A stretch of 64,000 nucleotides of DNA from a virus (Duplodnaviria; Heunggongvirae; Uroviricota; Caudoviricetes): positions 52,697 through 116,696 of the IMG/VR virus record IMGVR_UViG_3300048091_000193; one strand, 5' to 3'. Of this stretch, positions 139 to 62,324 are shown one piece after another. How positions within the stretch are numbered: the first letter of the stretch is position 1; the number at the start of each line of letters is the position of its first letter. Under the pieces are notes generated by a model. That model made no database searches. It was not told where the DNA came from and saw only the letters and a program-made list of their open reading frames with translations. A program made the position numbers and the translations under genes.

Positions 139-188
139 TTGACTTTCCGGGATAGGTCGTAGCTATAATGTAAGTCAGAACTGACTTA
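139..188 (+). promoter_or_regulatory. Class I promoter-operator: TTGACT(139-144), 19 nt, TATAAT(164-169), palindrome AAGTCA-gaac-TGACTT(172-187). A hairpin cccggaaa/tttccggg overlaps the -35.
   Basis: Read from sequence; upstream of CDS starting at 202. Confidence 0.55.
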
Positions 189-201
189 TTCAGAGGAATT
201 G

Positions 202-2061
202 ATGACAACTTTGGTCGAGATGAAGGCTTTCCTGAAGGCCTACAACAACACGAAGAAGTTCCCCTCGCTCGGCGATGTCGCTGTTGAACTCGGTGTCAGT
301 TATCAGACCGTCCGGAACAAAGCCTCCGTCTATCGCGCCCGAACCCGCCTCGACGACAAGCTGCCACCCATCATCGACCGCTCACAGGTCAAGATCGTCG
401 CCAAGGGCGATGAGAAGTCCCCCGAAGAACACGCGCACGCCCGCGCCGCCGCCCTGGCAACCGACATCACGGATATGATTCAGGGCTCGAATTATCCGCT
501 GATCAATCCGGACTGCATCATCGTCGAGAGCGGCATGGTGTGGCGCTATGACCGGGACGCCGGCACCAAGGTGAAAGTCGAATCCACACCGCGCACCTGG
601 CTCACCGAGACGCCGAAGGTCGCGCCGATCAAGAACAGCCGCGGCCGCAAGTTCATCTTCACCGGCGCCCAGAACGACACCGAGGTTCACAAGGGTTTCT
701 GGACCAACCTCAAGGCCTATGCGCGCAGCATCGGCGCCGAGATCGCTGTCGGCCCCGGCACCTACGAGACCCAGTGGTGGAGCGAGAATAACCCGGCATC
801 GCGGGCCTATGACGAAGTCCTCAAGGATCACCTCTGCTTCGGGCAGCTCGAGATCGGCGACAACTTCATGTTCTGCGGGCAGATGAACATCATCCCCACA
901 GCGTCCAGTCCCATTACAGACCTGGTGACGCATTCGCGGGGCCGCTGGGCCGTCTTTCCCCACGCCAAGCGCCAGCTGCGCTCAGTGCCCTCGACAGACC
1001 CATCTGTGCAAGCGCATCAGGTGATGTCGTCGGGCCTGGTGACCAAGCCGAAGGTCATTCCCCGCAAGGCCGGCATCAAGAGCCTATTCCATCACGTGCT
1101 CGGCGCCGTGGTGGTCGAGTTCGATAAGGACGGCGATATCTTCCCGCGGCACATCTCGGCCGACAAGAGCGGCTCATTCTACGACCTGGACGCCTATGTC
1201 ACGAACGGCAAGGTCATCCGGGGTAAGCACCGCATCGACGCCCTGACCGGGCCGGACATTCACCGGGCCAAGATGGGTCCTGTCAACGCCAAGGCAATCT
1301 GGGGCTTCGACGTGCGGACCGGCAAGGTCGATCGCCGCGGAACCCTGGTGGAGCTCCTGAAGCCGCGCAAGAAAACCTACCACGACCTGTTCGACAACGA
1401 GACCCGCAACCACCATCACGCCAAGGATCCGCTGCACAATTACGAGCAGGCGATCCGGGGCAGGGACCGCGTCATTACGGAACTGCACGAGGCCGGCGAC
1501 TTCATGGTCGCCGTGAAGACGCGCGACAGCGAGGATATCGTCATCGAGGCCAATCACGACATAGCGCTCAACCGCTATATCGTCGAAGGTCGGTTCCGGA
1601 TGGACGGCGTCAATGCGCGCCTGGGCAACCAGCTCGAGGCGGATCTGCTCGACCGGACCGAGGTGATCGCCAGGTGCCGAGCCAATTACACCTCGCCGCC
1701 GAACTGGTCGCTTCTGGAGACCGCACTGCGCCGACTGAAGGGTAACGCGCTGTCTCATGTCCGATGGGCATATGACGGCAAATCCTTCCTCATCGGCGGC
1801 ATCGAGCACGGTCATCACGGCTTCCGCGGCCCCAATGGCTCGATCGGATCGGTCATCGGTTTCGCCCGTATGGGCCGCAAGATGTCGATCGGTGACAAGC
1901 ACTCGCCGTGCATTGAAGATGGTGTCTATGTCGCTGGCGCATTGGAGCTCTCGCACGGCTACAATAAAGGCCCAAGTGGTTGGGCTGTAACGGTTATTGT
2001 CCAGTATCCCGACGGCAAGCGAACCCTCGTGACCCTCCATAATGGAAAATTCAGGGGCTAG
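202..2061 (+). CDS. Hypothetical protein with N-terminal helix-turn-helix (LGDVAVELGVSYQTVRNK); function unknown
   Basis: 620-aa ORF; ORF track begins at TTG 199, ATG at 202 after GAGG. Follows the class I promoter. Protein-like composition. Confidence 0.6.
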   Translation: MTTLVEMKAFLKAYNNTKKFPSLGDVAVELGVSYQTVRNKASVYRARTRLDDKLPPIIDRSQVKIVAKGDEKSPEEHAHARAAALATDITDMIQGSNYPLINPDCIIVESGMVWRYDRDAGTKVKVESTPRTWLTETPKVAPIKNSRGRKFIFTGAQNDTEVHKGFWTNLKAYARSIGAEIAVGPGTYETQWWSENNPASRAYDEVLKDHLCFGQLEIGDNFMFCGQMNIIPTASSPITDLVTHSRGRWAVFPHAKRQLRSVPSTDPSVQAHQVMSSGLVTKPKVIPRKAGIKSLFHHVLGAVVVEFDKDGDIFPRHISADKSGSFYDLDAYVTNGKVIRGKHRIDALTGPDIHRAKMGPVNAKAIWGFDVRTGKVDRRGTLVELLKPRKKTYHDLFDNETRNHHHAKDPLHNYEQAIRGRDRVITELHEAGDFMVAVKTRDSEDIVIEANHDIALNRYIVEGRFRMDGVNARLGNQLEADLLDRTEVIARCRANYTSPPNWSLLETALRRLKGNALSHVRWAYDGKSFLIGGIEHGHHGFRGPNGSIGSVIGFARMGRKMSIGDKHSPCIEDGVYVAGALELSHGYNKGPSGWAVTVIVQYPDGKRTLVTLHNGKFRG

Positions 2062-2112
2062 ATTGTCAGTTAGTTCTGACTTACACTTTCCCCAACTGAT
2101 CGGAGTGTTGAG

Positions 2113-2295
2113 ATGGCTGGCGAGAATACCCTGGATGGCTACACCGTAACGGCGCCGGACCCGACTGATGGTCCGAACCTCGTGAGCAATCCGGCCCCGG
2201 ATCCGCTTTACGCACCCAACCTGCCCACGAGCGACCCCGAGAATGCGGGTCAGTTCTGGAATAACAACGGCGTCCTCTCGATCTCGGCGGGCTAA
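2113..2295 (+). CDS. Small hypothetical protein (60 aa, Pro/Asp-rich)
   Basis: ORF preceded by GGAG and a degenerate class I operator at 2064-2083. Confidence 0.3.
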   Translation: MAGENTLDGYTVTAPDPTDGPNLVSNPAPDPLYAPNLPTSDPENAGQFWNNNGVLSISAG

Positions 2296-2298
2296 ACC

Positions 2299-2805
2299 AT
2301 GACGACCATAGCGTATAAAGACGGTGTTATGGCTTCCGATAGCTGCATCTCTGGCGGCGGAACGTGGCGAGCGTCGGTCGCAAAGGTCGGCAAAACTTCG
2401 ACTGGCGCACTCTATGGCTGGGCAGGCGAAGCCGATATTCGCGAAGCGCTCAACCTTATCGATCGCATTCATACTCCTGACGATCTGCCGAGCAAGCGGG
2501 AGATCGCGCACACCCAGACCGACTTCTCTCTTTTGATCGCCTTTGGACCGAACGAGGTCTACTCCATTCACTGTAACGAATGCGAGGACGGTCGCTATCA
2601 GGGCTACGTCAATATAGCCAATCTCGGCTTCGCATCGATCGGCTCCGGTAGCGAGATCGCCACGGGTGCGCTCGCAGCCGGCGCATCAGCGGTCGACGCG
2701 GTCAAGATCGCCACGGAATTCGACTGTTACTCAAAAGCGCCCGTTTATTCGATCGCATTCGAGAAACCAGCCACGAAGAAGCCCCCGAAGCCCAAGCCAA
2801 AGTAA
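2299..2805 (+). CDS. HslV-like / proteasome beta-type Ntn-hydrolase peptidase
   Basis: N-terminus MTTIAYKDGVMASDS has Thr immediately after Met (Ntn nucleophile); GSGSEIATGALAAG glycine motif as in HslV; Lys/Pro-rich C-tail. No hslU-like ATPase nearby. Confidence 0.55.
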   Translation: MTTIAYKDGVMASDSCISGGGTWRASVAKVGKTSTGALYGWAGEADIREALNLIDRIHTPDDLPSKREIAHTQTDFSLLIAFGPNEVYSIHCNECEDGRYQGYVNIANLGFASIGSGSEIATGALAAGASAVDAVKIATEFDCYSKAPVYSIAFEKPATKKPPKPKPK

Positions 2806-2824
2806 AAGACCCAGGAGTCCCGTG

Positions 2825-3622
2825 ATGTCTCGCTCTATCGACCGTGCTACCGCCCGCAAGTCCCGTAGGTCCGAAAAGAAAGACAACCGCGCCGTTCTCC
2901 TCCAAGCCGTCGAAGAAACACGGCGAGTCCCTGTGCGGGCTTCCCGCGCGCCCCTGAAGCCTCTCACCGAGGCGCAGCGCGTCTATGGCTCCTGCATTCG
3001 CGCCAGTCGTGTGACCTTCGGCATCGGCCCCGCCGGCACCGGCAAGACCTGGTTCGCCGCTGCGCTCGCCGCGGAAGCTCTCCAGGCCGGCGACATCAAG
3101 ACTATTGTCATCGTCCGCCCGGCTGTCGAGGCCGGCGAGAACCTCGGCTTTCTGCCTGGCGACCTGAATGAGAAGGTCGATCCGTTCATGCGGCCGATCT
3201 ACGACGCCCTGTCCGAGCGGATGGGATCCAGCGCGATGGAATATGCGATCAAGGCTGGCGCGATCGAGGTTCGCCCATTGGCGTTCCTGCGCGGCTCGAC
3301 GCTCAAGGACTGCTGGGTGCTGGCCGACGAAATGCAGAACACCACGCCGGCCCAGATGAAGATGTTCCTCACCCGCATCGGCGAGAATAGCCGCTTCATC
3401 GTCAACGGCGATCTCAGCCAGACTGACATCGAGGGACCGTCGGGCCTCGCCGATGCGCTGCGCCGGCTGGACGGTCTGCGCTTTGTGTCCAAGGTCGAGT
3501 TCACGACAGCGGACATTGTCCGTGATCCGATTTGTCAAGCAATCGCTGCTTGCTATGAGAAACCCCGACCAGTAGAGAACGATGGTGCGCAGGTCCGGCA
3601 TCTATTCGATCAGGCATCTTGA
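2825..3622 (+). CDS. phoH: PhoH-like P-loop ATPase
   Basis: GIGPAGTGKTW Walker A; VLADEMQN Walker B; typical phage PhoH length. Start refined to ATG 2825 after AGGAG (ORF track has an upstream in-frame extension from 2666). Confidence 0.85.
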   Translation: MSRSIDRATARKSRRSEKKDNRAVLLQAVEETRRVPVRASRAPLKPLTEAQRVYGSCIRASRVTFGIGPAGTGKTWFAAALAAEALQAGDIKTIVIVRPAVEAGENLGFLPGDLNEKVDPFMRPIYDALSERMGSSAMEYAIKAGAIEVRPLAFLRGSTLKDCWVLADEMQNTTPAQMKMFLTRIGENSRFIVNGDLSQTDIEGPSGLADALRRLDGLRFVSKVEFTTADIVRDPICQAIAACYEKPRPVENDGAQVRHLFDQAS

Positions 3623-4358
3623 CTCTGATCGCCGATACATTGGTAGCGCGGTTTCCATCTATCATCGATGGGCCGCGCACCGAAGTTATTTGACCAAGGG
3701 TGGTCATCAGAACTCGTATCTTCAACGAGCCTGGGTGCGTTATGGCGCGGATCGTTTTATATTCGAGGTTATTGAGTATGTGGATGTCGATCTCCTGATT
3801 GAGCGCGAGCAGCATTGGCTCAATCAATTCGCTCGGCCACAGCTTTTCAACCTTCGTCGCGATGCGCGATCAAATAAAGGCATCCGTCTCAGCGACGAAA
3901 CGAGGCAAAAGCTTAGCGTGATAGCCAAGCGGCGGGGTGTCTCTCCAAAGTGCCGTGCGGCAGCGGTTAAAGCTCAGACGGGAAAGAAGGCGACCGAGGC
4001 TACGCGCGCCAAGATGGTCGCGGCCAAGATCGGGAAGATCCACTCTGACGCCGCTCGGCTCAAGATGAGCGAGCAGGCCCAGCGACGAGGCGAGGGTCAT
4101 ATAGGCAAGATTCGCAAGGCACTCCTGCGCACCTGGTTACTCACTGACCCAGCCGGCGCGGAACACATCGTCACCGACATCATTGCTTTCGCTAAACAAA
4201 ATGGGCTGTCGGCGAATGAACTCCGCAATGTAGCGGATCGACCGGGCCGAACGCATAAGCGCTGGGTCTCTCGTCGGCTGTCTATTACGCGCAATCCTGA
4301 CTCGCAGAGCTATATTGCATCTAACAGCGACAACGCGCTGAAAGATCAAGCAGCCTGA
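3582..4358 (+). CDS. GIY-YIG homing endonuclease (I-TevI-like) with C-terminal NUMOD-like repeats
   Basis: GIYSIRHLDSDRRYIGSAVSIYHRWAAHRSY GIY-YIG motif; repeated basic helix motifs in the C-terminal half; overlaps the phoH 3' end. Confidence 0.75.
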   Translation: MVRRSGIYSIRHLDSDRRYIGSAVSIYHRWAAHRSYLTKGGHQNSYLQRAWVRYGADRFIFEVIEYVDVDLLIEREQHWLNQFARPQLFNLRRDARSNKGIRLSDETRQKLSVIAKRRGVSPKCRAAAVKAQTGKKATEATRAKMVAAKIGKIHSDAARLKMSEQAQRRGEGHIGKIRKALLRTWLLTDPAGAEHIVTDIIAFAKQNGLSANELRNVADRPGRTHKRWVSRRLSITRNPDSQSYIASNSDNALKDQAA

Positions 4359-4365
4359 GAGTGGA

Positions 4366-5228: not shown

Positions 5229-5549
5229 ATGAACAACCGTTTCGGCAACAATCATTCCCGCGGCACCATCGATCTGACAAAGCGCCCGATCGTTGTCGAG
5301 CGCGCCGGCGAGCGCAAGCCGTTCAAGCCGAAGCCGCCTAAGAAGTGGTCGCATCAGGATCAGCTGGAGAGCCTGAAGGGTAAGGAGATCATGGTTTGCA
5401 TCTTCGGCCCGGAGAATCCTATTCGCGGCGTGCTCCTCGAGGCTGATCAATTTACGATCCAGGTCGAGGTTGACAGTTTTTTTGTCTCTGATGTTAAGTC
5501 AGTGCTGACTTACTTTAAGTCGCAGGTCGTCTTTTTCACAGCGGTCTAA
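5229..5549 (+). CDS. hfq: Hfq-like Sm-fold RNA-binding protein with basic N-terminal extension
   Basis: QDQLESLKGKEIMVCIFGPENPIRGVLLEADQFTIQVE aligns by eye with the E. coli Hfq Sm1/Sm2 region [40 protein letters not shown]. The 3' end runs into the next promoter. Confidence 0.55.
   Translation: MNNRFGNNHSRGTIDLTKRPIVVERAGERKPFKPKPPKKWSHQDQLESLKGKEIMVCIFGPENPIRGVLLEADQFTIQVEVDSFFVSDVKSVLTYFKSQVVFFTAV
5470..5511 (+). promoter_or_regulatory. Class I promoter-operator: TTGACA(5470-5475), palindrome AAGTCA-gtgc-TGACTT(5496-5511)
   Basis: Read from sequence; upstream of the dnaB-like gene. Confidence 0.5.
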
Positions 5550-5553
5550 CCCA

Positions 5554-8000: not shown

Positions 8001-8014
8001 TCCTGCGTTTTACC

Positions 8015-8055
8015 AGTCAGTTTTGACTTACAAACCTCGACGAACTCGCTATATT
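8015..8055 (+). promoter_or_regulatory. Class I promoter-operator, type A: palindrome AGTCAG-tttt-GACT(8015-8028) overlapping -35 TTACAA(8028-8033), 16 nt, -10 TATATT(8050-8055)
   Basis: Read from sequence; the 5' UTR that follows (gagcagcgcacac...aaagggg) is conserved with those at 17862-17899 and 60985-61016. Confidence 0.55.
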
Positions 8056-10838: not shown

Positions 10839-10858
10839 AAGTCAGGATTGACTTGCAA
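10839..10858 (+). promoter_or_regulatory. Class I operator AAGTCA-ggat-TGACTT followed by TTGCAA -35-like hexamer
   Basis: Read from sequence; the downstream -10 is not obvious. Confidence 0.4.
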
Positions 10859-11737: not shown

Positions 11738-11760
11738 TGTTATAATCAGTTCTGACTTAA
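11738..11760 (+). promoter_or_regulatory. Extended -10 promoter TGTTATAAT with half operator cagttCTGACTTa
   Basis: Read from sequence; precedes a gene with strong RBS GGAGGA. Confidence 0.45.
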
Positions 11761-12225: not shown

Positions 12226-12301
12226 TTCCAGGTAGCTCAGTTGGTAGAGCTTCCCGCTGTTAACGGGACGGTCGCTGGTTCGAGTCCAGCCCTGGGAGCC
12301 A
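12226..12301 (+). tRNA. tRNA-Asn (anticodon GTT)
   Basis: Cloverleaf folded by hand: acceptor ttccagg/cctggga, D-arm gctc-agttggta-gagc, anticodon arm tcccg-ctGTTaa-cggga, 5-nt variable loop, T-arm gctgg-ttcgagt-ccagc, discriminator G, encoded CCA. Confidence 0.8.
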
Positions 12302-13859: not shown

Positions 13860-14300
13860 ACTCGTAACGTTCCGAGTAATGTCCGATTCTGGGTGATTTG
13901 CCTAGCGGTCTCAAGTCAAGATTGAAGACCAGGTAGAGGACCGCCGAGGGCTTCCCGAGATAGCTATCATACGAAGTGAAAAGTATCCGCTGACAACCCT
14001 AACGATTGATTCGCCTGCTTTGGAGGCTAAACTTGGATTCGCATAACATACATTATGGAATATCCACGCTCCATTTCTACCGTTAAGCCTATGGCGGGCA
14101 ACGATTTTCTAAGTTCTTTGGAACAAAACTCAAGTATAGCGGTTGACAACAGACGCGGAAACAGTTCATTTTTGCACTGTCAGAACTAACTTATACCGCT
14201 CAGATTTCCAGTCGGAAGCCTACGTCGTCCCTTTCTCGCTCTGCTATATACAACTTATCGAAGCAGACAGTCGCTCATAAACCGAGCGGAGAAAGGATTA
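13860..14300. other. AT-rich non-coding region between divergent RHH and XRE genes; candidate regulatory or origin region
   Basis: Lower GC than flanks. Contains TTGACA-like hexamer, degenerate class I half-site tgtcagaactaactta (14178-14193), gattcgc repeats and a ctatatac -10-like box at ~14246. Confidence 0.4.
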
Positions 14301-14310: not shown

Positions 14311-14757
14311 ATGTTGCACACGGAGGGCGCTACAGTGTCCAAACTACAGAGCCGGTCGGGTTTCACCTCGACGGGTGATATCAAAATCCACGAGTTCATC
14401 TCGAAGCAAATCGACGTTGTGAAGTCGATGGGCCAGACCCAGCGCGATATCGCCGAGGCTGTGGGCTACGACAAGCCCGCCATGATCAATATGTTCAAGG
14501 CCGGCACGGTGAAGGTTCCTCTCGAAAAGGTCCCGGCACTAGCCAAGGCCCTACATGTCGATCCGGGCTTTCTGTTTCGTCTTGCTCTGATGCAATACTG
14601 GAAGAACGACGCCGATGCGATTGCGCAGGTGTTCGGGACGGTCCTGACCGCAAACGAGGTCAAGATCATCGATAAGATCCGTGCTGTGTCCAAGGAGAGC
14701 GATCCTCCGCTGACCCGCGATGCGGAAGCGAAGTTGAAGGCGGCGTTCGGCGTCTAA
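14311..14757 (+). CDS. XRE-family (Cro/CI-type) HTH transcriptional regulator
   Basis: TQRDIAEAVGYDKPAMINMFKAG helix-turn-helix; AAAGGA/AGGAG RBS before ATG 14311. Confidence 0.7.
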   Translation: MLHTEGATVSKLQSRSGFTSTGDIKIHEFISKQIDVVKSMGQTQRDIAEAVGYDKPAMINMFKAGTVKVPLEKVPALAKALHVDPGFLFRLALMQYWKNDADAIAQVFGTVLTANEVKIIDKIRAVSKESDPPLTRDAEAKLKAAFGV

Positions 14758-14829: not shown

Positions 14830-14845
14830 AAGTCAGTATTGACTT
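14830..14845 (+). promoter_or_regulatory. Class I operator AAGTCA-gtat-TGACTT
   Basis: Read from sequence; followed by CTATAT box at 14869-14874 immediately before ATG 14882 (possible leaderless start). Confidence 0.45.
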
Positions 14846-15106: not shown

Positions 15107-15117
15107 TCTGTTTTTAC

Positions 15118-15131
15118 AGTCAACACTGACT
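15118..15131 (+). promoter_or_regulatory. Class I operator cAGTCA-acac-TGACTt upstream of the cobT-like gene
   Basis: Read from sequence; AAAGGGGAA RBS follows. Confidence 0.45.
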
Positions 15132-15154
15132 TACACGCCAAAGGGGAATACGAA

Positions 15155-17820: not shown

Positions 17821-17861
17821 AAGTCAAAACTGACTTGCAAACCTAGCGACGCAACGATATT
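17821..17861 (+). promoter_or_regulatory. Class I promoter-operator, type A: AAGTCA-aaac-TGACTT(17821-17836) overlapping -35 TTGCAA(17835-17840), -10 GATATT(17856-17861)
   Basis: Read from sequence; near-identical in layout and 5' UTR to the promoter at 8015-8055. Confidence 0.55.
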
Positions 17862-19136: not shown

Positions 19137-19787
19137 ATGACAGAACTCCGCATCGAACAGCACTTGGGGCTGATGAAGAAGTTCTCCTTTCAGGTCATGC
19201 GCCGGCTTCAAGCCGCCGGCTCAAAGACGACCCTGATGGACGACATCATGCAAGAATGCGCCGAAGCCTGGTGTAAGGCGCGTGACAAATGGGATCCCGA
19301 AGCCGGCGTCCCGTTCGTCGCCTATTTCAAGAAGGGCATGGTTGATCACGTCAACCGCTTCGTCGGCAAGGAGATCTTCCACTACAACGGGTCCCATTTC
19401 GAGCTGGACGCGGAGCTCTCTGAAGACGGTGACTCCGCAGGTCACGAGCTGGTGGCGGACCACGCAGCCGGCACGCCCGAAGACGCCATCGTGGAGTCCG
19501 ATCGTCGCGCTAAGGCCCTTGCTCGGCTCTCCCCGCGCGCGCGCCAGTTCATCGAACTGTGCGAAAGCCCGCCGAAGTGCCTGGTCGACACCGTCAATGC
19601 GCTGCGCGAGCGCCGCGAATATGCCCTCGCCCGCAAGCTGCCGGCGATCCCGGTGCCCAAGCGCGTGCTGCCGAGCCTGATCTTCCGGTTCATGGGCGCC
19701 ACGCGGACTGAGCAGACCGGCATCACGCGGGAGCTCGAACAGAAATTCAACATCAAAGCCAACCTCGCGGAAATGGATCGAGTTTAA
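19137..19787 (+). CDS. Putative sigma-70 family (ECF-like) sigma factor
   Basis: Region-2-like MDDIMQECAEAWCKARDKWDPEAGVPFVAYFKKGMVDHVNRF (cf. AEDLVQETFLKAW...FDP...FSTWLYRIARN...R); region-4-like LSPRARQFIELCESPP. Similarity judged by eye only. Confidence 0.45.
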   Translation: MTELRIEQHLGLMKKFSFQVMRRLQAAGSKTTLMDDIMQECAEAWCKARDKWDPEAGVPFVAYFKKGMVDHVNRFVGKEIFHYNGSHFELDAELSEDGDSAGHELVADHAAGTPEDAIVESDRRAKALARLSPRARQFIELCESPPKCLVDTVNALRERREYALARKLPAIPVPKRVLPSLIFRFMGATRTEQTGITRELEQKFNIKANLAEMDRV

Positions 19788-24421: not shown

Positions 24422-24467
24422 GCGCAATCCTGTTCGTTTGCGCTATATTATAAGTCAACACTGACTT
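24422..24467 (+). promoter_or_regulatory. Class I promoter-operator, type B: -35 GCGCAA(24422-24427), 16 nt, -10 TATATT(24444-24449), palindrome AAGTCA-acac-TGACTT(24452-24467)
   Basis: Read from sequence. Confidence 0.6.
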
Positions 24468-25998: not shown

Positions 25999-26077
25999 GG
26001 CGCGTCAGTAACTTAGAAAGTTACGTCAATCCTCGATCGTCTCGCTATATTAGATTAGCGAAATCGCTAAATAGCGA
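25999..26077 (+). promoter_or_regulatory. Promoter with class II operator: palindrome GTAACTT-aga-AAGTTAC, -35 CGTCAA, -10 TATATT(26046-26051), then AGCGAAATCGCTAAATAGCGAAAT (26057-26077)
   Basis: Read from sequence; same -35/-10 frame as class I promoters but with the TCGCTAAATAGCGA-type palindrome in the operator position; upstream of the SSB gene. Confidence 0.5.
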
Positions 26078-30351: not shown

Positions 30352-30417
30352 GTCCTCACTGTTGCAAATCACTGCGAAGCGCTATTACAGCGCTTCGCAC
30401 TTACAACGGAGAGAACA

Positions 30418-31245: not shown

Positions 31246-31292
31246 CTGCAAACCGCGACAATCTCGCTATATTCGCATAGTCAGCACTGACT
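31246..31292 (+). promoter_or_regulatory. Class I promoter-operator, type B: -35 CTGCAA(31246-31251), 16 nt, -10 TATATT(31268-31273), palindrome AGTCA-gcac-TGACT(31279-31292)
   Basis: Read from sequence. Confidence 0.6.
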
Positions 31293-31309
31293 TACATCCG
31301 GGGAACAAT

Positions 31310-32996: not shown

Positions 32997-33040
32997 TCTT
33001 GCCACCCGCTATCCGCTTTCAGACTTCGTAGTCTGAAAGC
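32993..33040 (+). promoter_or_regulatory. Class III element cTGATCTTGCCACCCGCTATCCG overlapping the sbcD stop codon, followed by a perfect 11-bp hairpin gctttcagact-tcgt-agtctgaaagc
   Basis: Read from sequence; same element at 45158-45179 and 55520-55540. Confidence 0.45.
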
Positions 33041-33064
33041 AGAGCAACAGACACAGGACGCGCA

Positions 33065-33439: not shown

Positions 33440-34059
33440 AATTTAACGTAAAACTTGAACACAAGACCCACGGCGTCGTCGATACGGTCGTCGATCTCCC
33501 CGAGGTCGGCGAGAACGATAGCCCGCACGAGTCCTGGGAGGAGATAGTCACGGCTGCGCAGAAGAACGCGGCATCTCGCTATGTCGATTTCGAGAGCTTC
33601 GGCAACGACAGCAAGTATCTCGATCGCCTCGAGGAAGTCGGGGCTGAGTTCGAGATGGTCGATGCGCTGGTGGAGAGCGATCAGCCGAACAAGCGCTGGG
33701 CCGTCTATGGTCATTATTCAAACAACGACGGCGGCACCTGGAACGACCACGTCGAGGCGCCAACCTACGAGATTGCGGCGTTCTATGCACGCAAGACGAT
33801 GGCCTACAACGAATACGAAGGGCGGACCGGCGTCGATCAGACCGACTTCCAGATCACGATGGACGAGATCCAGATTTTCGACTGCTACGAGGAGCCGGTG
33901 ACGAAGGACGAGGCTATCGGGGAGCTGAAAGCTGCATATGCCGCGATGCAGAATTTCGTCGACAAGTGCGATCGCGGCGAAGCCAAGAGCGTCCGCACCT
34001 ACGCCGCGTTCAAGGCGCTGCTCGGCGGATCCAGGCTGCCGGCGGAGATGCGTTCGTGA
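33436..34059 (+). CDS. Hypothetical acidic protein
   Basis: 207-aa ORF ATGA-coupled. Confidence 0.45.
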   Translation: MKFNVKLEHKTHGVVDTVVDLPEVGENDSPHESWEEIVTAAQKNAASRYVDFESFGNDSKYLDRLEEVGAEFEMVDALVESDQPNKRWAVYGHYSNNDGGTWNDHVEAPTYEIAAFYARKTMAYNEYEGRTGVDQTDFQITMDEIQIFDCYEEPVTKDEAIGELKAAYAAMQNFVDKCDRGEAKSVRTYAAFKALLGGSRLPAEMRS

Positions 34060-36625: not shown

Positions 36626-36673
36626 CTGCAAACCTTGTTTCGCTCGCTATATTACACAAGTCAGCACTGACTT
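36626..36673 (+). promoter_or_regulatory. Class I promoter-operator, type B: CTGCAA(36626-36631), 16 nt, TATATT(36648-36653), AAGTCA-gcac-TGACTT(36658-36673)
   Basis: Read from sequence. Confidence 0.6.
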
Positions 36674-37651: not shown

Positions 37652-37700
37652 GCGCGCAGACCTACATCTGCGCGCTATAATATAAGCTAACACTGACATT
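37652..37700 (+). promoter_or_regulatory. Degenerate class I promoter: hairpin gcgcgcag/ctgcgcgc, -10 TATAAT(37676-37681), degenerate operator aagctaacactgacatt
   Basis: Read from sequence. Confidence 0.4.
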
Positions 37701-38912: not shown

Positions 38913-38928
38913 AAGTCAGTTCTGACTT
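38913..38928 (+). promoter_or_regulatory. Class I operator AAGTCA-gttc-TGACTT upstream of the RNR gene
   Basis: Read from sequence. Confidence 0.45.
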
Positions 38929-41499: not shown

Positions 41500-41551
41500 G
41501 CGCAAACCTCGTCGATCTCGCTATATTCATCTTACACAGTCAGTGTTGACT
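41500..41551 (+). promoter_or_regulatory. Class I promoter-operator: GCGCAA(41500-41505), 16 nt, TATATT(41522-41527), AGTCA-gtgt-TGACT(41538-41551)
   Basis: Read from sequence. Confidence 0.55.
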
Positions 41552-41634
41552 TACATCACTGACGGTCTTAGAGGAAGAAGGAGAGATCGATGACCCGCGG
41601 TTAAGCCACCCTACCCTGATGTTTCCTCCCAACT

Positions 41635-41666
41635 GCGACCCGTCATGCCCGGCGGGTCGCATTTTC
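41635..41666 (+). terminator. Leader hairpin gcgacccg-tcatgcccgg-cgggtcgc followed by ATTTT, inside a ~140-nt 5' UTR
   Basis: Sits between the promoter at 41500-41551 and the first ORF at 41689; possible attenuator or small RNA 3' end. Confidence 0.35.
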
Positions 41667-41688: not shown

Positions 41689-41946
41689 ATGATGTCTGAA
41701 CGCCGCATCACGTCCGAACGCGACAATCCCCTTAAGACCATTGCCGGCCTGATCCAGAAGCTCTCGTATCGAGACATGCAGAAGCTATCGGAAGCGCTGG
41801 TGCAGGCCTTCGCGGGTGAGAACAAGGGCTCGATGGAAATGGCGTCCGCGCTGCTCAAGGTCGCCGACCAGACCCTTGCGCCGACGGTCAACGAAAACGT
41901 CATCGGTTATCACAAGGACAAGGCTATCGGCGGGCCGTTTCGCTGA
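41689..41946 (+). CDS. Hypothetical protein (85 aa)
   Basis: ORF after AAAGAGA RBS. Confidence 0.4.
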   Translation: MMSERRITSERDNPLKTIAGLIQKLSYRDMQKLSEALVQAFAGENKGSMEMASALLKVADQTLAPTVNENVIGYHKDKAIGGPFR

Positions 41947-42203: not shown

Positions 42204-43178
42204 ATGACCATTTCTGCCAAGATCATCGCCGACTCGATCAGCCCACAGCGCATCCGCCTGACCACCATGCAGCTGCGCTACCCGCGCTTCATCCATGCCG
42301 AGTTCATGACGCATCGGGTGTTCTCGCGAAACGCCTCGTCATCGCGCGCCATCCCGGTCAAGCGTCTGATCCAGGACGTCATCGATGATCCAGCGATGCC
42401 ATTGCATTGGGGCAAGAACCAGCCCGGCATGCAGGCCAAGGAAGAACACGACGGCGAGGTGCAGCTACCCGTCCAAGTCGTGCGTCATTCAGGCACCAGC
42501 TTCGAGGCGAAGCCTCATTCTGCGCAAGATGCGTGGTTTTGGGCGCGTCATCGCGCAATCCAGGCTGCCGATGCTTTCGATAGAGCCGGCTACCACAAGC
42601 AGATCGTCAACCGTCTCCTCGAGCCCTTCAGCCATATCAACGTGCTGGTGACGGCGACGGAATACGACAACTTCTTCGCGCTCCGTGATCATCCGGATGC
42701 ACAACCCGAAATTCGCATGCTTGCTCAGGCTATGCAGGGAGCAATGGATGCGTCAAAGCCTGAGCCCCTTTGGTCTGGAATGTGGCATCTTCCATATGTT
42801 TCTGCGGAAGAACGAAGCAGCTTGAGCGCGGCTATTGGTCTTGCAACGATGTCGGTCGACGAAATCCAGAAAACTCATTGGGCGGTTTCAGTAGCTCGTT
42901 GCGCCCGCGTTTCTTATCTGACGCAAGAAGGCAAGACCCCTACTCTCGAGGAAGACCTGGCGCTCTACGATCGCCTGCTCGCATCTGTGCCACTGCATGC
43001 CTCGCCAGCTGAGCACCAGGCGACGCCGGATCAAGGAACGGTTCGGATCGATGGCGGGGCCGGCCCGCAGTTTCGCAAGCCATATCTCGCTTGGCACAAT
43101 TTCGAGAAGCACGGCAATCTGAGGGGCTGGATCCAGTTCCGCAAAACGCTTTCGGGCGAAAATCAAGCGCAAACCTAA
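42204..43178 (+). CDS. thyX: Flavin-dependent thymidylate synthase ThyX
   Basis: ThyX motif RHRxxSxxxxSxR present as THRVFSRNASSSRAIP; appropriate length. Confidence 0.85.
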   Translation: MTISAKIIADSISPQRIRLTTMQLRYPRFIHAEFMTHRVFSRNASSSRAIPVKRLIQDVIDDPAMPLHWGKNQPGMQAKEEHDGEVQLPVQVVRHSGTSFEAKPHSAQDAWFWARHRAIQAADAFDRAGYHKQIVNRLLEPFSHINVLVTATEYDNFFALRDHPDAQPEIRMLAQAMQGAMDASKPEPLWSGMWHLPYVSAEERSSLSAAIGLATMSVDEIQKTHWAVSVARCARVSYLTQEGKTPTLEEDLALYDRLLASVPLHASPAEHQATPDQGTVRIDGGAGPQFRKPYLAWHNFEKHGNLRGWIQFRKTLSGENQAQT

Positions 43179-43212
43179 ACGCTTACGCTATATTGTAAGT
43201 CAACGCTGACTT
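43167..43212 (+). promoter_or_regulatory. Class I promoter-operator: GCGCAA(43167-43172), 16 nt, TATATT(43189-43194), AAGTCA-acgc-TGACTT(43197-43212)
   Basis: Read from sequence. Confidence 0.6.
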
Positions 43213-45161: not shown

Positions 45162-45179
45162 TCTGCCAGCCGCTATCCG
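45158..45179 (+). promoter_or_regulatory. Class III element cTGATCTGCCAGCCGCTATCCG overlapping the kinase stop codon
   Basis: Read from sequence; followed by short hairpin gctcg-ctagtgt-cgagc. Confidence 0.45.
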
Positions 45180-45231
45180 GGTTTTCGCTCGCTAGTGTCG
45201 AGCATAGACAACGCACAACGAAAGGTCTGCA

Positions 45232-46396: not shown

Positions 46397-46429
46397 GTCG
46401 TCGCTCGCTATTGTTTTGTGAGCGACGAC
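46397..46429 (+). promoter_or_regulatory. 10-bp perfect hairpin gtcgtcgctc-(gctattgttttgt)-gagcgacgac occupying the usual operator position upstream of rIIA; contains CGCTATTG -10-like box
   Basis: Read from sequence; AAGGGGAA RBS follows. Confidence 0.4.
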
Positions 46430-50049: not shown

Positions 50050-50108
50050 CTGCAAACCTAACGCTGCGCGCTATATTGTAAGTCAGTATTGACTTTGTAG
50101 CGCGCAGC
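50050..50108 (+). promoter_or_regulatory. Class I promoter-operator: CTGCAA(50050-50055), 16 nt, TATATT(50072-50077), AAGTCA-gtat-TGACTT(50080-50095), bracketed by 9-bp inverted repeat gctgcgcgc(50063-50071)/gcgcgcagc(50100-50108)
   Basis: Read from sequence. Confidence 0.6.
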
Positions 50109-52503: not shown

Positions 52504-52727
52504 CCAAGACAATGATCGCTGGTCTGAGGGAGTGCGCTGATTGGGGCGCAAGTGGATCTGATTACGGCATGCACACGGCTTGGAAGCCCAAAACGATGGA
52601 GAAGCTGCACCAGCTCGGTCTCGTGATGAAGGTTGAAAAGTGCCGATCCGCTGCCGGCTTTCGCTTCACTGGTTGGCGTCTCACCGAAAAGGGCGAAACC
52701 ACTCTCAAGGGAGAAATCCAATGCTGA
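52497..52727 (+). CDS. Small hypothetical protein (76 aa)
   Basis: Internal ATG of ORF-track entry 52308..52727; the upstream part of that entry is out-of-character sequence. Confidence 0.35.
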   Translation: MLTKTMIAGLRECADWGASGSDYGMHTAWKPKTMEKLHQLGLVMKVEKCRSAAGFRFTGWRLTEKGETTLKGEIQC

Positions 52728-58127: not shown

Positions 58128-58248
58128 AAATGGCCATCCATCACCTCGACGGCGTGAAGCGCCGGCCGGACCCGTTGATCACCTGCCCGAAGTGCGGCCC
58201 CGTTTCACGTGAAACGATTTCGCCTATTAGCGAAGACGCTAAATAGCG

Positions 58249-58476
58249 ATGCCGCTACGGCGCGAAAGGACGATCATGCGAAATAGCGAAATGACGTTCG
58301 AGGAGAAGCTGACGCTTTACCTCCTGGCCGACCGTGACCAGCAAGACGATGACACCAAGGCCGACCGGGTCCTAATCAACACGGGTCTGGCGGAGCGCTA
58401 CGACCCAGGCATGATGCGGATCACGCCCGCCGGCACTGCGGCGCTCATGGCCTTTCGCCACGAAATCGCTAAATAA
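58249..58476 (+). CDS. Small putative winged-helix DNA-binding protein (paralogue 1)
   Basis: LTLYLLADRD...VLINTGLAERYDPGMMRITPAGTAALMAF is similar by eye to LHALALLTIDLG...LIFLGMIEKSSNGFALTQRGREIVQSL of the next gene; start codon abuts a class II site. Confidence 0.4.
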   Translation: MPLRRERTIMRNSEMTFEEKLTLYLLADRDQQDDDTKADRVLINTGLAERYDPGMMRITPAGTAALMAFRHEIAK

Positions 58477-58490
58477 CGAAAGGGCGAAAT

Positions 58491-58706
58491 ATGGTCACCA
58501 TCACCGATGCGGTGCGCGGCACCCACGTAATGACCCATCTCCATGCACTGGCCCTCCTGACGATCGATCTCGGCTATCCCTACATTCGGGAAAAAGACGC
58601 TTTAGCCCTGATTTTCCTCGGAATGATCGAAAAATCGAGCAACGGGTTCGCTCTGACACAGCGCGGGCGCGAAATCGTGCAATCGCTAAAGAGCGATGAC
58701 GCTTAA
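58491..58706 (+). CDS. Small putative winged-helix DNA-binding protein (paralogue 2)
   Basis: Tandem paralogue of 58249..58476; a class II site (58682-58697) lies in its 3' coding end. Confidence 0.4.
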   Translation: MVTITDAVRGTHVMTHLHALALLTIDLGYPYIREKDALALIFLGMIEKSSNGFALTQRGREIVQSLKSDDA

Positions 58707-58980
58707 AAACGATCTGGGGCGCGCAGCGCGCGTCACTCGTGCATTCGCTCTTTAACGATAGAGCGATGCAGCTATTTAGCGAAAGCGCGTCAGTGACGTT
58801 CTAAAGCGATCCCGTTAAATCGCTAATTCGTCTTTTCGCTTGTCGACCGCCCGGACGCAGGTCTAGTTTTAGCGAATGACAGGGAATGCGATATCGCTTG
58901 AAATGTATTTCGCTAAATCGCGGCGACTGCGGCTCGAATTGTCAAATCGGCCATTCGTTGACGGCCTGCCGATCAGCACC

Positions 58981-59634: not shown

Positions 59635-59754
59635 AATCGTTATATAGCTAAATCGCTAAAGAACGACGACGAAAAGATTTCGCCTAATAACGAAAAAGCG
59701 AGATCGCTATAGAACGATCCCGCTCTTTAGTGACATCGCTAAATCGCGAAGTCG

Positions 59755-60450
59755 TTATGCGGCAAGGCTAACTGGACCCGTTGGGTTCGGCACGGTCAAC
59801 GATCGGGCGCCGGTCGGCGGGGCAGGGGGCTTTGGCTCGCTCAGGTATCGACGCAGCCGCAGGGAGTTCCGGATCGCCCAAGGCATCACCAGCGCCGTGG
59901 TCAGATAGAACGCGGCACAGATCGCCTCGATCTTGTCGGGAAGCGTTAAGCTCCAAGTTGGGAAGACATCGAGCAGGTTGTGAAAGATGGGCGACAGAAC
60001 CGCCAGCAACAGGGCAGGGCGGGTGCCGAAGACCATCGCCGCGCCCATGACGCCGAAGGCATAGAACAGAGCTCCGCCGTGAGGCACGAAGACGGATAAA
60101 ATAGTGGAGAGGGGAACGGTAACCAGAAGCGTCGCCAGAGTATAGAACAGGGCGGCGTTATTGGTCGGCACCGGCGGATCAGTCTCCGACGGGTAGGTTT
60201 CCAGGTCCTGACCGGCAATCGGGTAAACGTTGCTGGAGTAGCCATCCTGGGCCGATTCAGGCCAGGCGTCGGCGCCAAACATCAGGACTTCGCCGGCGAC
60301 ATCGTCGAGTGCCGCGCTCATCTGGCACAGGGCCAGGTGGTCGAAGGATTCGAGACCAATGTTCTTTGCGAATTGGGCTGCCGTTGAGACGAAAAGCTCC
60401 GAGAGGTCATGCTTCATGCCCTCGAAATCAGACGCCGAGTGGAACGACAT
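59755..60450 (-). CDS. Hypothetical membrane protein (acidic N-terminal domain, 4-5 TM helices)
   Basis: Protein-like composition unlike shadow ORFs; hydrophobic helices LATLLVTVPLSTILSVFV, ALFYAFGVMGAAMVF, ICAAFYLTTALVMPWAI; no competing + strand gene. Confidence 0.45.
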   Translation of the reverse strand: MSFHSASDFEGMKHDLSELFVSTAAQFAKNIGLESFDHLALCQMSAALDDVAGEVLMFGADAWPESAQDGYSSNVYPIAGQDLETYPSETDPPVPTNNAALFYTLATLLVTVPLSTILSVFVPHGGALFYAFGVMGAAMVFGTRPALLLAVLSPIFHNLLDVFPTWSLTLPDKIEAICAAFYLTTALVMPWAIRNSLRLRRYLSEPKPPAPPTGARSLTVPNPTGPVSLAA

Positions 60451-60771
60451 AATAGTGGTTTCCTTTGCTGCTGACCGTCAACCACGACGGAGACTACCTA
60501 CGTTGAGGTGGTCACAGGTTCTCTTTCTGTTCTCTTGTCGTCAAGTAGGAAACATATCCGAATTGGGATTTATTTTCCGGCGGTCGGTGACGATTTAGCG
60601 AAATCGTGCTATCGTTCTTTCAGGCCGACCCTATTGCCTTACAACCCGCCCAAATGTTGCGCAACGTGGAACTGTGTCAGAATTGACTTATTTCCAAGGC
60701 ATCCGGCATTCGGGCAACAGTTTGTTCATCCTTTTCTGTTCATCGGCGATTGATACTTGAAGGAATACCCA

Positions 60772-60981
60772 ATGAAATCAAAGAACGTGGACTTTACTAA
60801 CCTTAACGAGCGACAACCGACGCGATGGCGCCCCGATCCGCACCGACGCGGTCGCATCATCGCCAGCAAGAAGCTCTACAAACGAAAGCCTCGCACAAAA
60901 CGTGACGAGGCTTTCGACTTTAGTGGGGTGGCGTTATCATCTTTGCCTACTGCGAACCTGCGTCTGATCGCTATATTCTAG
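60772..60981 (+). CDS. Small basic hypothetical protein
   Basis: AAGGAA RBS 6 nt before ATG 60772. Confidence 0.3.
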   Translation: MKSKNVDFTNLNERQPTRWRPDPHRRGRIIASKKLYKRKPRTKRDEAFDFSGVALSSLPTANLRLIAIF

Positions 60982-60984
60982 TCA
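60972..60984 (+). promoter_or_regulatory. -10 TATATT (60972-60977) with half operator TAGTCA; conserved 5' UTR gcgcacagcacaaagga
   Basis: Read from sequence; UTR resembles those at 8056-8106 and 17862-17899. Confidence 0.35.
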
Positions 60985-61016
60985 CTCAACAACGCGCACA
61001 GCACAAAGGATACCGA

Positions 61017-61301
61017 GTGATTACACTGCCAAGCCTTCTGACCCTGGAGAACGTCACTGCCGCACCAATCGAAGCGGGTGACGCCGGCATCATCCTGAAA
61101 GCCGACGGGTCTTTTCGTGTCTTCAACTGCCACGAGGGGCTTAATCCTGACAACGTGACCGAGGCCCAGAAAGACCAGGCCCGTAAAATGATGGCGTTTG
61201 CTGTCGCACTGCAGGTGCCGGCCGTCATGGAGATCCTTTACGATTTCGCCCGCAACCCGGACATCGTCGGTTCGCTGTTTGATCGAGGTCAGTTCAATTG
61301 A
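61017..61301 (+). CDS. Hypothetical protein (94 aa), GTG start
   Basis: AAAGGA RBS 6 nt before GTG. Confidence 0.4.
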   Translation: MITLPSLLTLENVTAAPIEAGDAGIILKADGSFRVFNCHEGLNPDNVTEAQKDQARKMMAFAVALQVPAVMEILYDFARNPDIVGSLFDRGQFN

Positions 61302-61669
61302 CCGGGCACCGCAGCCGATATCGCGAGCTGGAGGCTGTGGTCGAAGCTCTGATGGAGCTGGACCACACCGATGCCGGCCTCGCCGAGAAGGTGATGCGGA
61401 TCAAACGTAAGGGTCGCAAGGCGCTCGACTTCAAGGAGGCGCCGCGCAGCCCGACTATCGATCTGGCGCGCAAGCTTGGCACGGAAGCGAACGTTGCCCG
61501 TGCGAATATCTTCCGTGCCAAGCTTGCGCCGGTCGTCGCTGAGATCCAGGCGGCCGGCATAAAGGGTTACGGCGAGATTGCCGCGGAGCTCAATAAACGC
61601 GGCTTCACTGCGCCCCGCGGCAATCCCTGGTCCAAGGGAACCGTTGGTCGGTTTATCAATGGGAACTGA
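61298..61669 (+). CDS. Small protein with resolvase/recombinase-type HTH motif
   Basis: IAAELNKRGFTAPRGNPWSKGTVGRFI resembles the recombinase-domain HTH (IA..LN..G..tprGg.W....V..iL). Confidence 0.4.
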   Translation: MTGHRSRYRELEAVVEALMELDHTDAGLAEKVMRIKRKGRKALDFKEAPRSPTIDLARKLGTEANVARANIFRAKLAPVVAEIQAAGIKGYGEIAAELNKRGFTAPRGNPWSKGTVGRFINGN

Positions 61670-61738
61670 CTCTTTCCGCTCGACAACCGTTTTTTGCTTT
61701 GCTAGTGCAATTCAGCACTGACTTACATAGAGGACAAG

Positions 61739-62056
61739 ATGACCGCATTCAGCTTTTTCAAGATGTTCGCCCGCAAGCCGGCTCTGGCGATCCCGGAGAA
61801 TGATTTGGTTCATATCGACCTCGCGGAACAGCTGGAACTCGCCGAGATTGCCAATTCCGGCCTCGAGGCGGCCCTCCGGGTCGAAAGTTCCGAGAGCGAC
61901 AAGCTGGCGGCGAAGCTGCGCGCGGCCGAGGATGCGGTGCTCTACCTGAATGACCATGTGCCGGCCGACGCCAAGCTCGACCCGTCGCTGTCGATCACCG
62001 AATCGATCTCGGAGATCATCAAGCGCCGCACGCAGAAGGGCAAAGGTTTCGCATGA
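61739..62056 (+). CDS. Hypothetical protein (105 aa)
   Basis: Preceded by half operator TCAGCACTGACT (61712-61723) and AGAGGA RBS. Confidence 0.4.
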   Translation: MTAFSFFKMFARKPALAIPENDLVHIDLAEQLELAEIANSGLEAALRVESSESDKLAAKLRAAEDAVLYLNDHVPADAKLDPSLSITESISEIIKRRTQKGKGFA

Positions 62057-62295
62057 AGGAGGACGATGCGGCGCTTGTGGCGACAATGACCCTGTTCCGC
62101 GCCTTGCGGCGGGAATGGGTCGGTCGCAACCCGACCAGGAACGGCGACGAATGTCCCATTCCCGAGGTCGCCGCGATGCGCCCCATCGACCGACAGATAT
62201 TCGTCCGAGCCATGAAGTCCGCGATCGCCTCGGCCAAGCCCGAGAATGTCGCACGGGTCATGGAGGGCCTGTCACGGCCCGCGGATATTTACTAA
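62053..62295 (+). CDS. Hypothetical protein (80 aa)
   Basis: ATGA-coupled. Confidence 0.35.
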   Translation: MKEDDAALVATMTLFRALRREWVGRNPTRNGDECPIPEVAAMRPIDRQIFVRAMKSAIASAKPENVARVMEGLSRPADIY

Positions 62296-62308
62296 CGCCT
62301 TGAATGGT

Positions 62309-62324
62309 AAGTCAGTTTTGACTT
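62309..62324 (+). promoter_or_regulatory. Class I operator AAGTCA-gttt-TGACTT
   Basis: Read from sequence; 70 nt upstream of ATG 62395. Confidence 0.45.

Follow-up and report, generated by a model that had tools for sequence, protein, structure and literature searches.

A recurrent promoter-associated palindrome in a RepC-type plasmid-prophage as candidate operator of an XRE-type repressor

Which factor reads a palindrome that recurs at operon starts over a large part of a phage genome, and in which phase of the phage's life is it read? This question is raised by a stretch of 64,000 nucleotides (nt) of a tailed phage (Caudoviricetes; IMG/VR record IMGVR_UViG_3300048091_000193, positions 52,697 to 116,696; the whole stretch is called the window here), which contains many copies of the inverted repeat AAGTCA-N4-TGACTT. 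The answer that we favour, with moderate confidence, is that the palindrome serves as a double-stranded DNA operator for a phage-encoded helix-turn-helix (HTH) dimer, most probably the XRE-type protein encoded at 14311-14757, which would silence the plasmid prophage. Support for this reading comes from the sites themselves, their symmetry, placement and conservation, and their co-occurrence with the XRE gene. Binding by the XRE protein, repression and the lysogeny setting are what we infer from the sequence; the silencing of a plasmid-prophage is likely the relevant setting, rather than the timing of early genes.

Number, symmetry and placement of the palindrome

The window holds 11 perfect copies of AAGTCA-N4-TGACTT, compared to none in 100 shuffled versions, and 20 copies if up to two mismatches are allowed, compared to 0.76 expected. 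Sixteen of these are strong (0-1 mismatch) and four carry two mismatches, so the recurring family described in the initial annotation was borne out. A missing intergenic enrichment had been set beforehand as a possible refutation; according to crude gene calls, with which some gaps may be missed coding sequence, 17 of the 20 copies fall into intergenic DNA, which makes up just 7.6% of the window (binomial P ~1e-16), and 19 of the 37 gaps of at least 50 nt contain the palindrome. No copy was found between 50.8 and 61.6 kb of the window, and its presence in "essentially every" intergenic region that starts an operon was hence overstated. The two-mismatch copies at 33635 and 60674 fall within open reading frames (ORFs) and are probably chance matches; the three-mismatch copies at 14177 and 37684 are located directly downstream of -10 hexamers. 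Altogether 18-20 separate operon starts carry the palindrome, as is characteristic of dispersed operators, and many copies end 13-17 nt 5' of a start codon, just before the Shine-Dalgarno sequence.

The alignment of the copies revealed that the full element is a 20-bp palindrome, GTAAGTCAR-NN-YTGACTTAC, and thus longer than the 16 bp noticed at first. Symmetry was evaluated with 93-94 sites of known orientation from the window and its relatives; this oriented set replaced an orientation by a simple ORF rule, which blurred the logo, and an over-degenerate pattern, which added noise. Among the 94 oriented sites the base frequencies of one arm are the mirror image of those of the other over all ten positions, with the flanking GT/AC, position 7 (R/Y) and the central pair included. 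The element therefore has the form of Cro/CI-type operators, i.e. two-fold symmetry over 14-20 bp with half-sites approximately one helical turn apart. Mismatches amount to 80 in the promoter-proximal left arm versus 45 in the right arm. Furthermore, the alignment with three close metagenomic relatives (approximately 95% mean column identity; 97% for the XRE protein) showed that changes at the sites 14830 and 15117 are confined to the central four bases, namely to the central N4 at 14830 and to position 7 at 15117. Intergenic bases flanking both sites have changed in the same relatives, which suggests that the arms are under selection. A pseudo-site at 13913 was rejected as operator of the gene for the ribbon-helix-helix (RHH) protein, since it is not conserved in these relatives.

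Many copies are tied to a rigid 27-bp promoter module, YGCRAWCCK-N9-CGCTATATT, in which the 9-nt gap is constant and which is repeated nearly identically about ten times in the window. Modules are located at 4290, 17836, 24423, 31247, 36627, 41501, 43168, 50051 and 60951. In the arrangement named type B, the palindrome follows the module -10 at a distance of 2-9 nt, which applies to seven copies (2 nt at 24452, 37684, 43197 and 50080; 4 nt at 31278 and 36658; 9 nt at 41537). All six type B coordinates of the initial annotation proved to be such units. Module copies without palindrome exist at 4308, 5185, 26043 and 60969. In type A, found at 8014 and 17821, the palindrome lies upstream and its last two T's begin the -35 hexamer, which places its centre at about -41. 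This layout is kept at the orthologous sites 5' of cobS and 5' of the post-primase gene in at least 10 relatives. Four type A promoters had been proposed; the assignment stands for 8014 and 17821, where the palindrome overlaps TTACAA/TTGCAA with a -10 16-17 nt further on. The sites 38913 and 62309 lack a suitably placed downstream -10 and have a -10-like hexamer 3 nt upstream, and are therefore regarded as type B. The features of the window that matter for the following are:

172-187: perfect palindrome; TATAAT (164-169) 2 nt upstream, start of the DNA-transfer-protein gene 14 nt downstream
2067-2082: two-mismatch copy (CAGTTA...TGACTT); TAGATT 2 nt upstream
5496-5511: perfect palindrome, 42 nt 5' of the gene for a DnaB-like helicase
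8014-8029: type A, one mismatch; end overlaps the -35 TTACAA, -10 block at 8047-8055, centre at about -41
10839-10854: perfect palindrome, followed by TTGCAA; possibly type A
11743-11758: two-mismatch copy; left arm overlapped by TGTTATAAT, an extended -10
14143-14192, plus strand: promoter of the XRE gene; TTGACA (14143-14148), 16-nt spacer, TTCATT (14165-14170), 6 nt, CTGTCAGAACTAACTT
14177-14192: weakened palindrome CTGTCAGAACTAACTT with three mismatches, on the XRE promoter
14311-14757, plus strand: gene for an XRE/Cro-CI-type HTH protein of 148 amino acids, the proposed binder and master repressor
14830-14845: perfect palindrome between the XRE gene and the small gene heading the CobT operon
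15117-15132: one-mismatch copy, 22 nt 5' of the CobT gene
17821-17836: perfect palindrome heading the CobS, sigma factor and DnaE genes; type A for the promoter TTGCAAACCT...GATATT (17836-17861); TAGAAT 3 nt upstream
24423-24467, plus strand: type B; CGCAATCCT-N9-CGCTATATT, 2 nt, perfect palindrome (24452-24467)
31247-31293, plus strand: type B; module, 4 nt, one-mismatch palindrome (31278-31293)
36627-36673, plus strand: type B; module, 4 nt, perfect palindrome (36658-36673)
37656-37699, plus strand: type B; CGCTATAAT, weakened palindrome AAGCTAACACTGACAT (37684-37699)
38913-38928: perfect palindrome, type B, 5' of the ribonucleotide reductase gene; TAGACT 3 nt upstream
41501-41552, plus strand: type B; module, 9 nt, one-mismatch palindrome (41537-41552)
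43168-43212, plus strand: type B; module, 2 nt, perfect palindrome (43197-43212)
50051-50095, plus strand: type B; module, 2 nt, perfect palindrome (50080-50095), bracketed by GCGCGCTA/TAGCGCGC
61709-61724: one-mismatch copy, 14 nt 5' of a start codon
62309-62324: perfect palindrome, type B; TTGAAT 3 nt upstream

The position behind a -10 is thus not restricted to the module, since other -10-like hexamers stand 2-3 nt before the copies at 172, 2067, 17821, 38913 and 62309. Over 93 family sites, -10-like hexamers accumulate at two distances from the palindrome, 0-4 nt on its upstream side and 36-41 nt on its downstream side. The operators overlap core promoter elements in the manner of Cro/CI-type systems, here on predicted promoters. 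The promoter before the copy at 172 reads TTGACT-N19-TATAAT, a spacing that is not optimal; its TTGACT (at 139-146, 19 nt 5' of TATAAT) doubles as right-arm half-site TGTTGACTT and may represent a half-operator rather than a -35.

A scan for E. coli-consensus promoters between 30.5 and 50.4 kb detected no site, because the -35 of the module is GCAAAC and departs from TTGACA. We assume that the module promoters are read by the host sigma-70; their -10, CTATAT, fits the alphaproteobacterial consensus. The window also encodes a sigma-70-family (ECF-like) factor (19137-19787), syntenic with gp045 of the related Rhizobium phage RHEph10, and this phage sigma factor may be the reader of the 27-bp module. 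Two sigma-related explanations of the palindrome itself were rejected. The right arm (TTGACT) does not qualify as a -35 for host sigma-70, since there is no -10 at a distance of 17 nt and too little room before the start codon. That the palindrome belongs to a promoter read by the phage sigma factor is at odds with the arm spacing, which is wrong for a -35/-10 pair, and phage SSU5, a more distant relative, has the sites without a syntenic sigma gene.

Some promoters deviate from this scheme. The hairpin described before rIIA (46397-46429) was found again, as were the inverted repeats bracketing the element at 50063-50108, which have a length of 8 bp and not of 9 bp as stated initially. Gene-specific inverted repeats with arms of 5-10 bp occur at 30352-30417, 32997-33064, 45162-45231 and 46397-46429; they flank a CTATNN -10 on both sides or come immediately after it, the place occupied by the shared palindrome at other promoters. 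At the rIIA promoter of RHEph10, a degenerate version of the shared palindrome takes the place of the hairpin 46397-46429.

Operator, RNA hairpin or promoter cassette

A palindrome close to the 5' end of many transcripts could also act as RNA, and the initial annotation had mentioned a 5' stem-loop on every early mRNA as an alternative. Such an RNA element, a stem-loop of 6-8 bp near the mRNA 5' end, could stabilise the transcript, modulate translation or be the target of a sequence-specific RNA-binding protein or endoribonuclease. The location of many copies just upstream of the Shine-Dalgarno sequence would suit this role, the gene-specific inverted repeats that hold the same place at four other promoters are a hint that structure matters, and some copies in relatives sit within operons. 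However, in an RNA stem one would look for G-U pairs, and among the non-Watson-Crick arm pairs on the sense strand of the 94 oriented sites, 41 are of the G-U type and 41 of the A-C type. Wobble pairs are hence not preferred and A-C mismatches are frequent. Compensatory changes were not seen; it is the arm sequence itself that stays constant in genomes with GC contents of 43-68%. Moreover, with the -10 just 2-4 nt away, standard promoter geometry places the transcript start inside the left arm, and the transcript would miss most of the 5' arm. Type A copies precede their own promoter, and virulent relatives are entirely without the palindrome. The folding energies of the hairpins, -4 to -8 kcal/mol with z-scores of -2.5 to +0.7, are unremarkable. 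The search of the window against the curated covariance models of Rfam 15, at the gathering score, matched no palindrome but only the tRNA at 12226-12298, and among the terminator-like hits in the window the palindromes, which have no U-tract, are not found. The missing wobble bias, the symmetry that runs on through the would-be loop and into the flanks, exceeding any plausible stem, and the transcript start inside the left arm together point to recognition as double-stranded DNA and not as RNA hairpin. The 5' stem-loop is thus not supported, and we regard a function as RNA element as improbable.

Even less probable, in our view, is that the palindrome is just part of a promoter cassette that was spread by recombination and kept for module shuffling, similar to the promoter-early-stem-loop (PeSL) units of T4-type phages. 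The nearly identical module repeats would be expected from such a cassette, and the occurrence of palindrome and module in differing orders or apart could reflect the shuffling. Nevertheless, the palindrome is retained in genomes whose promoters around it have wholly different sequences, its distance from the module ranges from 2 to 9 nt, the constraint is tighter on the arms than on the flanks, and there is no U-tract as in a terminator. The operator for a DNA-binding dimer remains our preferred reading.

Relatives of the phage and the candidate binder

The genes of the window comprise those for the DNA-transfer protein, PhoH, DnaB, primase, ligase, RepC (on the minus strand), CobT and CobS, and furthermore the sigma factor, DnaE, RecA, SbcCD, ribonucleotide reductase and rIIA/rIIB. 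Their order matches RHEph10, whose DnaE is 57% identical, and more distantly the SSU5 supergroup. RHEph10 and the 117.5-kb Sinorhizobium plasmid pLM21S1 belong to a group of plasmid-like prophages with RepC replication (PMC4447125). On the basis of RepC and these relatives, the gene content identifies the window as the replication/early half of a RepC plasmid-prophage of the RHEph10/pLM21S1 (SSU5-supergroup) type. A megablast search with the window gave only short thymidylate-synthase matches among phages, none among plasmids and no near-identical record. The tRNA gene at 12226-12298 (64.6 bits) adjoins the end of the RepC gene.

The motif scan of IMG/VR identified many contigs with several copies each, which share the terminase-portal-capsid-tail module of the supergroup. 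The core of the palindrome recurs in relatives from Alpha-, Beta- and Gammaproteobacteria over the whole GC range of 43-68%. In RHEph10 it has the form CAGTCAATATTGACTG, in a 106-kb Cupriavidus plasmid CAGTCAG-NN-CTGACTG, and an AGTAA core is found in an Aeromonas plasmid, SSU5 and phage Cyrano, with approximately 19 copies of TAAGTAAG-NN-CTTACTTA in SSU5. SSU5 contains a second family as well, AAACAA-N-TTGTTT, with approximately 20 copies located 12-13 nt after a GATAAT-like -10 (loci L123-L125), at early genes just before the Shine-Dalgarno sequence. In 80 kb of nickie and 43 kb of ANB28, two virulent phages with the same gene order, no recurring palindrome of whatever type was detected. Symmetry, fixed placement, conserved arms and the absence in these virulent relatives support the idea, put forward initially, of a dimer-sized operator in promoters through which one factor acts on many operons. 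The restriction of that idea to the replication module did not hold, since copies in RHEph10 also precede tail genes and the palindrome is therefore not specific to this module.

Among the encoded proteins, the XRE protein has the strongest connection to the sites. Of the plasmid records, 108 contain a homolog, and Klebsiella accounts for 77 of these; among the matches listed, the plasmids are mostly 103-120 kb in size and come from Alpha-, Beta- and Gammaproteobacteria. Temperate phage records with homologs include Cyrano, PhiR41_1, several Klebsiella phage-plasmids and Rhizobium phages. The search of the phage collection returned no Pseudomonas or Stenotrophomonas record, from which it follows that nickie and ANB28 lack the gene. 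In these two virulent phages both the XRE gene and the palindromes are absent. A single-sequence locus search with the XRE protein gave no match.

The arrangement around the gene is also telling. In the Cupriavidus plasmid, Moellerella and Cyrano, the XRE gene is divergent from an operon consisting of the small gene, CobT, CobS and DnaE. The Cupriavidus lytic promoter consists of TATAAT, 9 nt and CAGTCATAGCTGACTG (two mismatches to AAGTCA-N4-TGACTT), and the promoter of its XRE gene of TATAAT, 7 nt and a three-mismatch palindrome. In Cyrano, the XRE promoter reads TAATAT, 1 nt, GGTAAGCACTTACC (core GGTAAG-CA-CTTACC). All elements of the XRE promoter in the window are invariant in the 95%-identical relatives; its spacer has changed at 4 positions. 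A weakened operator on the regulator's own promoter, as in Cro/CI-type systems, is hence seen in the window, Cupriavidus and Cyrano. Upstream of the plasmid-maintenance genes for RepC and the RHH protein, there is no conserved copy of the palindrome.

The structure model of the XRE protein (pLDDT of 76 overall and approximately 90 in the HTH) predicts the five-helix HTH_3 fold of Cro/CI-type proteins, with helices at residues 26-39, 44-51, 57-64, 71-80 and 85-96, followed by three C-terminal helices. Foldseek aligned the model to P22 c2 (root-mean-square deviation 1.8 Å over 66 columns) and the 434 repressor (1.9 Å over 60), and further to lambda cI, HigA and DdrO, with probabilities of approximately 1.0 but E-values of only about 0.01-0.08. 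These proteins and C.AhdI, which matched as well, bind operators as dimers. The best PDB match of the family profile is an "immunity repressor" (8bny, E = 5.5e-4). As an S24 peptidase domain is missing, RecA-mediated self-cleavage is not expected. The ortholog in Cyrano, CYRAN_45, was transcribed 10-fold over the local background in E. coli LF82 lysogens, a value given in a table with a footnote that marks master repressors of lysogeny, and ciprofloxacin induced Cyrano 39-fold (PMC9928086).

The initial annotation had proposed three kinds of binders. The XRE protein gained support, and nothing was found that links the twin winged-helix proteins (58249, 58491) or the RHH protein to the palindrome. 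Another winged-helix protein was considered as well. Its small gene is located directly 5' of the gene for the small terminase subunit (TerS) throughout the supergroup, virulent nickie included (loci L002, L020, L024, L044, L081, L125:2971-3237, L122:10361-10597 and L151:6846-7187). The protein is present in 12 motif-rich contigs, SSU5 and RHEph10, and its recognition helices differ among contigs that share one motif. Since nickie keeps a homolog (E = 1.6e-22) yet has no palindromes, the protein is excluded as sole determinant; judged by its position, it could be a late-gene or packaging regulator.

Nevertheless, several observations weigh against the XRE protein as lysogeny repressor at these sites, and the assignment is circumstantial. 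SSU5 has approximately 19 sites of the AGTAA variant without an XRE homolog. This state can be explained as a recent loss of the gene, because Cyrano is reported to be 81% identical over 65% of SSU5 (PMC9928086), or another protein could read the sites there. As a side result, no homology was found between the XRE protein and the "transcriptional repressor" SSU5_121. The divergent layout is missing from the window and from RHEph10-like genomes, whose XRE gene runs in the same direction as the lytic genes. The Pfam HTH_3 match of the protein reaches 17 bits, below the curated cut-off of 23. The operator core is unusually constant for an immunity repressor, given hosts with GC contents of 43-68%, and the region of the recognition helix varies among genomes that share this core. 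With a strict E. coli-type criterion, a -10 hexamer is recognised at only about a quarter of the family sites, and some RHEph10 copies lie between tail genes without a recognisable promoter.

These observations bear on the possibility that the palindrome is the DNA site of another phage factor. This could be a temporal regulator of lytic growth, for example an early shut-off protein or a middle/late activator, or else a silencing or partition-type protein, for instance a ParB-like one. The sites in SSU5, the palindromes before late tail genes in RHEph10 and the operator core, which is far more conserved than usual for immunity specificity, can be read in this way; the type A centre at about -41 corresponds to the geometry of a class II activator, and the phage encodes its own sigma factor and ParB-like proteins. 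However, the only other family-wide small DNA-binding protein that was found, the winged-helix protein upstream of TerS, also occurs in the palindrome-free nickie, and the virulent relatives carry out an identical lytic programme in the absence of the motif. An activator should be unneeded at the several sites that follow promoters with a good -10 and, in one relative, a good -35 as well. The sigma gene is absent from the syntenic position in SSU5, where the sites are present. We therefore consider a factor other than the XRE repressor unlikely.

Proposed switch and comparison with known systems

If the XRE protein is the binder, its dimer would occupy approximately 20 operators in the 64 kb of the window, and more elsewhere in the genome, as long as the phage persists as plasmid. 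At type B promoters, it would cover roughly -5 to +15 and block initiation by RNA polymerase. At type A promoters, with the centre at about -41, it would occlude the -35 and sigma region 4, or contact the latter as class II activator. The weak site on the XRE promoter would permit negative autoregulation. Occupancy in the plasmid state would keep the lytic genome silent. Because a peptidase domain is missing, the inactivation of the XRE protein would probably need an antirepressor or a similar factor, and after its removal the lytic operons would fire together.

A more far-reaching version appears doubtful to us. It states that one regulator uses the two geometries differently, repressing from about +4 to +11 and activating from about -41, and that cross-immunity exists among distant phage-plasmids. 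In this case, occupancy would switch the genome between promoter sets instead of simply silencing it. The shared core (AGTCA-N4-TGACT, or AGTAA in enterics and Aeromonas) is the reason to think that one repressor type could cross-regulate distant phage-plasmids, and cross-immunity could then extend to SSU5-like elements in which resistance genes have been reported (PMC9600943).

The SSU5 supergroup is a common group of phage-plasmids, and resistance genes are reportedly spread by phage-plasmids in general (PMC9600943). The operator reading makes lysogeny control testable in this widespread group. It provides a regulon with a 20-bp operator, a map of approximately 20 sites and a named candidate repressor, which has orthologs in E. 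coli (Cyrano CYRAN_45) and Sinorhizobium (pLM21S1). The virulent relatives without sites and XRE gene are a natural control, and the sequence signature could help to separate temperate from virulent members of the group. Our full-text literature searches found no description of the motif, and nothing on how more than 100 lytic genes are silenced in the plasmid state of SSU5-supergroup phage-plasmids.

Further elements of the window deserve mention. A second palindrome family, TTAGCG-N4-CGCTAA, is found at 26055-26070, 58227-58242, 58684-58911, 59644-59659 and 59727-59742. Ten of the 23 TTAGCG half-sites in the window cluster at 58.2-59.75 kb around the twin winged-helix genes, and a single perfect copy stands downstream of the -10 in the promoter at 26043. 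In RHEph10 this motif is found in the vicinity of ParA/ParB; the family could serve as a centromere-like array or as another set of operators. CGTTTCACGTGAAACG, present once (58201-58216), corresponds to the central 14 bp of the parS consensus of chromosomal ParB; a TTAGCG palindrome follows it at a distance of 11 nt, and the first of the twin winged-helix genes at a distance of 33 nt. Finally, in the segment 41519-41661 the promoter and palindrome are followed by an ORF of four codons (ATG ACC CGC GGT TAA) and a strong terminator-like hairpin with T-tract (41634-41661), ahead of the next gene at 41689. This segment could be a leader/attenuator or a small RNA.

The switch proposed here is most likely of a familiar kind, although it was not found described for the SSU5-type phages in the literature searched. 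The repressor C1 of P1 controls a plasmid-prophage through many operators scattered over separate operons, and its own gene is regulated. All these features have counterparts in the window: the plasmid-prophage, the dispersed operators on separate operons and the presumed regulation of the repressor gene. The P1 operators, however, are asymmetric and 17 bp long, C1 is not an XRE/HTH_3 protein, and the late genes of P1 are reached indirectly via Lpa. In contrast, the element described here is a 20-bp palindrome that occurs more densely, has an HTH_3 protein as candidate binder and precedes structural genes in a relative (RHEph10). The sequence of the site differs from the C1 consensus as well. 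The stoperators of cluster A mycobacteriophages, bound by gp71 in L5, are another example of tens of genome-wide sites, some within operons, that silence a prophage, and some cluster A phages are extrachromosomal with parABS. Stoperators are asymmetric, 13 bp long, have a fixed orientation to transcription and act on elongation. The window sites differ in being palindromic and tied to promoter cores; sites that are asymmetric, oriented and intra-operon were not found, apart from some intra-operon copies in RHEph10. The PeSL units of RB49-like T4-type phages are cassettes of promoter plus inverted repeat before many small operons, and their stem-loops serve as terminators and as substrates for recombination. 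The repeat described here stands downstream of the -10, has no U-tract and is conserved in sequence rather than structure, and none of the copies is terminator-like.

MrpR of SPbeta acts through a repeated element. It is the master repressor that holds this large phage in lysogeny (PMC10516654). MrpR belongs to an unrelated protein family, and SPbeta is an integrated prophage of a Gram-positive host. Palindromic operators at many plasmid promoters also serve KorA/KorB of the IncP plasmid RK2 in coordinated silencing, with KorB as ParB-type CTPase clamp that acts at a distance (PMC11790492). The sites of the window, unlike those of KorB, hold a fixed promoter position, and the candidates for ParB-like motifs are other palindromes, namely TTAGCG-N4-CGCTAA and the parS-like site. 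The closest parallel at the level of the single promoter is provided by CI/Cro of lambda, 434 and P22, which share the HTH_3 fold, symmetric operators overlapping -35, -10 or +1, a weaker own operator and, in some relatives of the window phage, the divergent layout of repressor and lytic genes. The type A position at about -41 also matches the geometry in which lambda CI activates PRM. Unlike in these phages, operators are present at approximately 20 promoters in 64 kb, far beyond one immunity region. Taken together, the system appears to resemble P1 C1, the stoperators, MrpR and KorA/KorB in its function, and an ordinary Cro/CI-type pair of repressor and operator in its parts.

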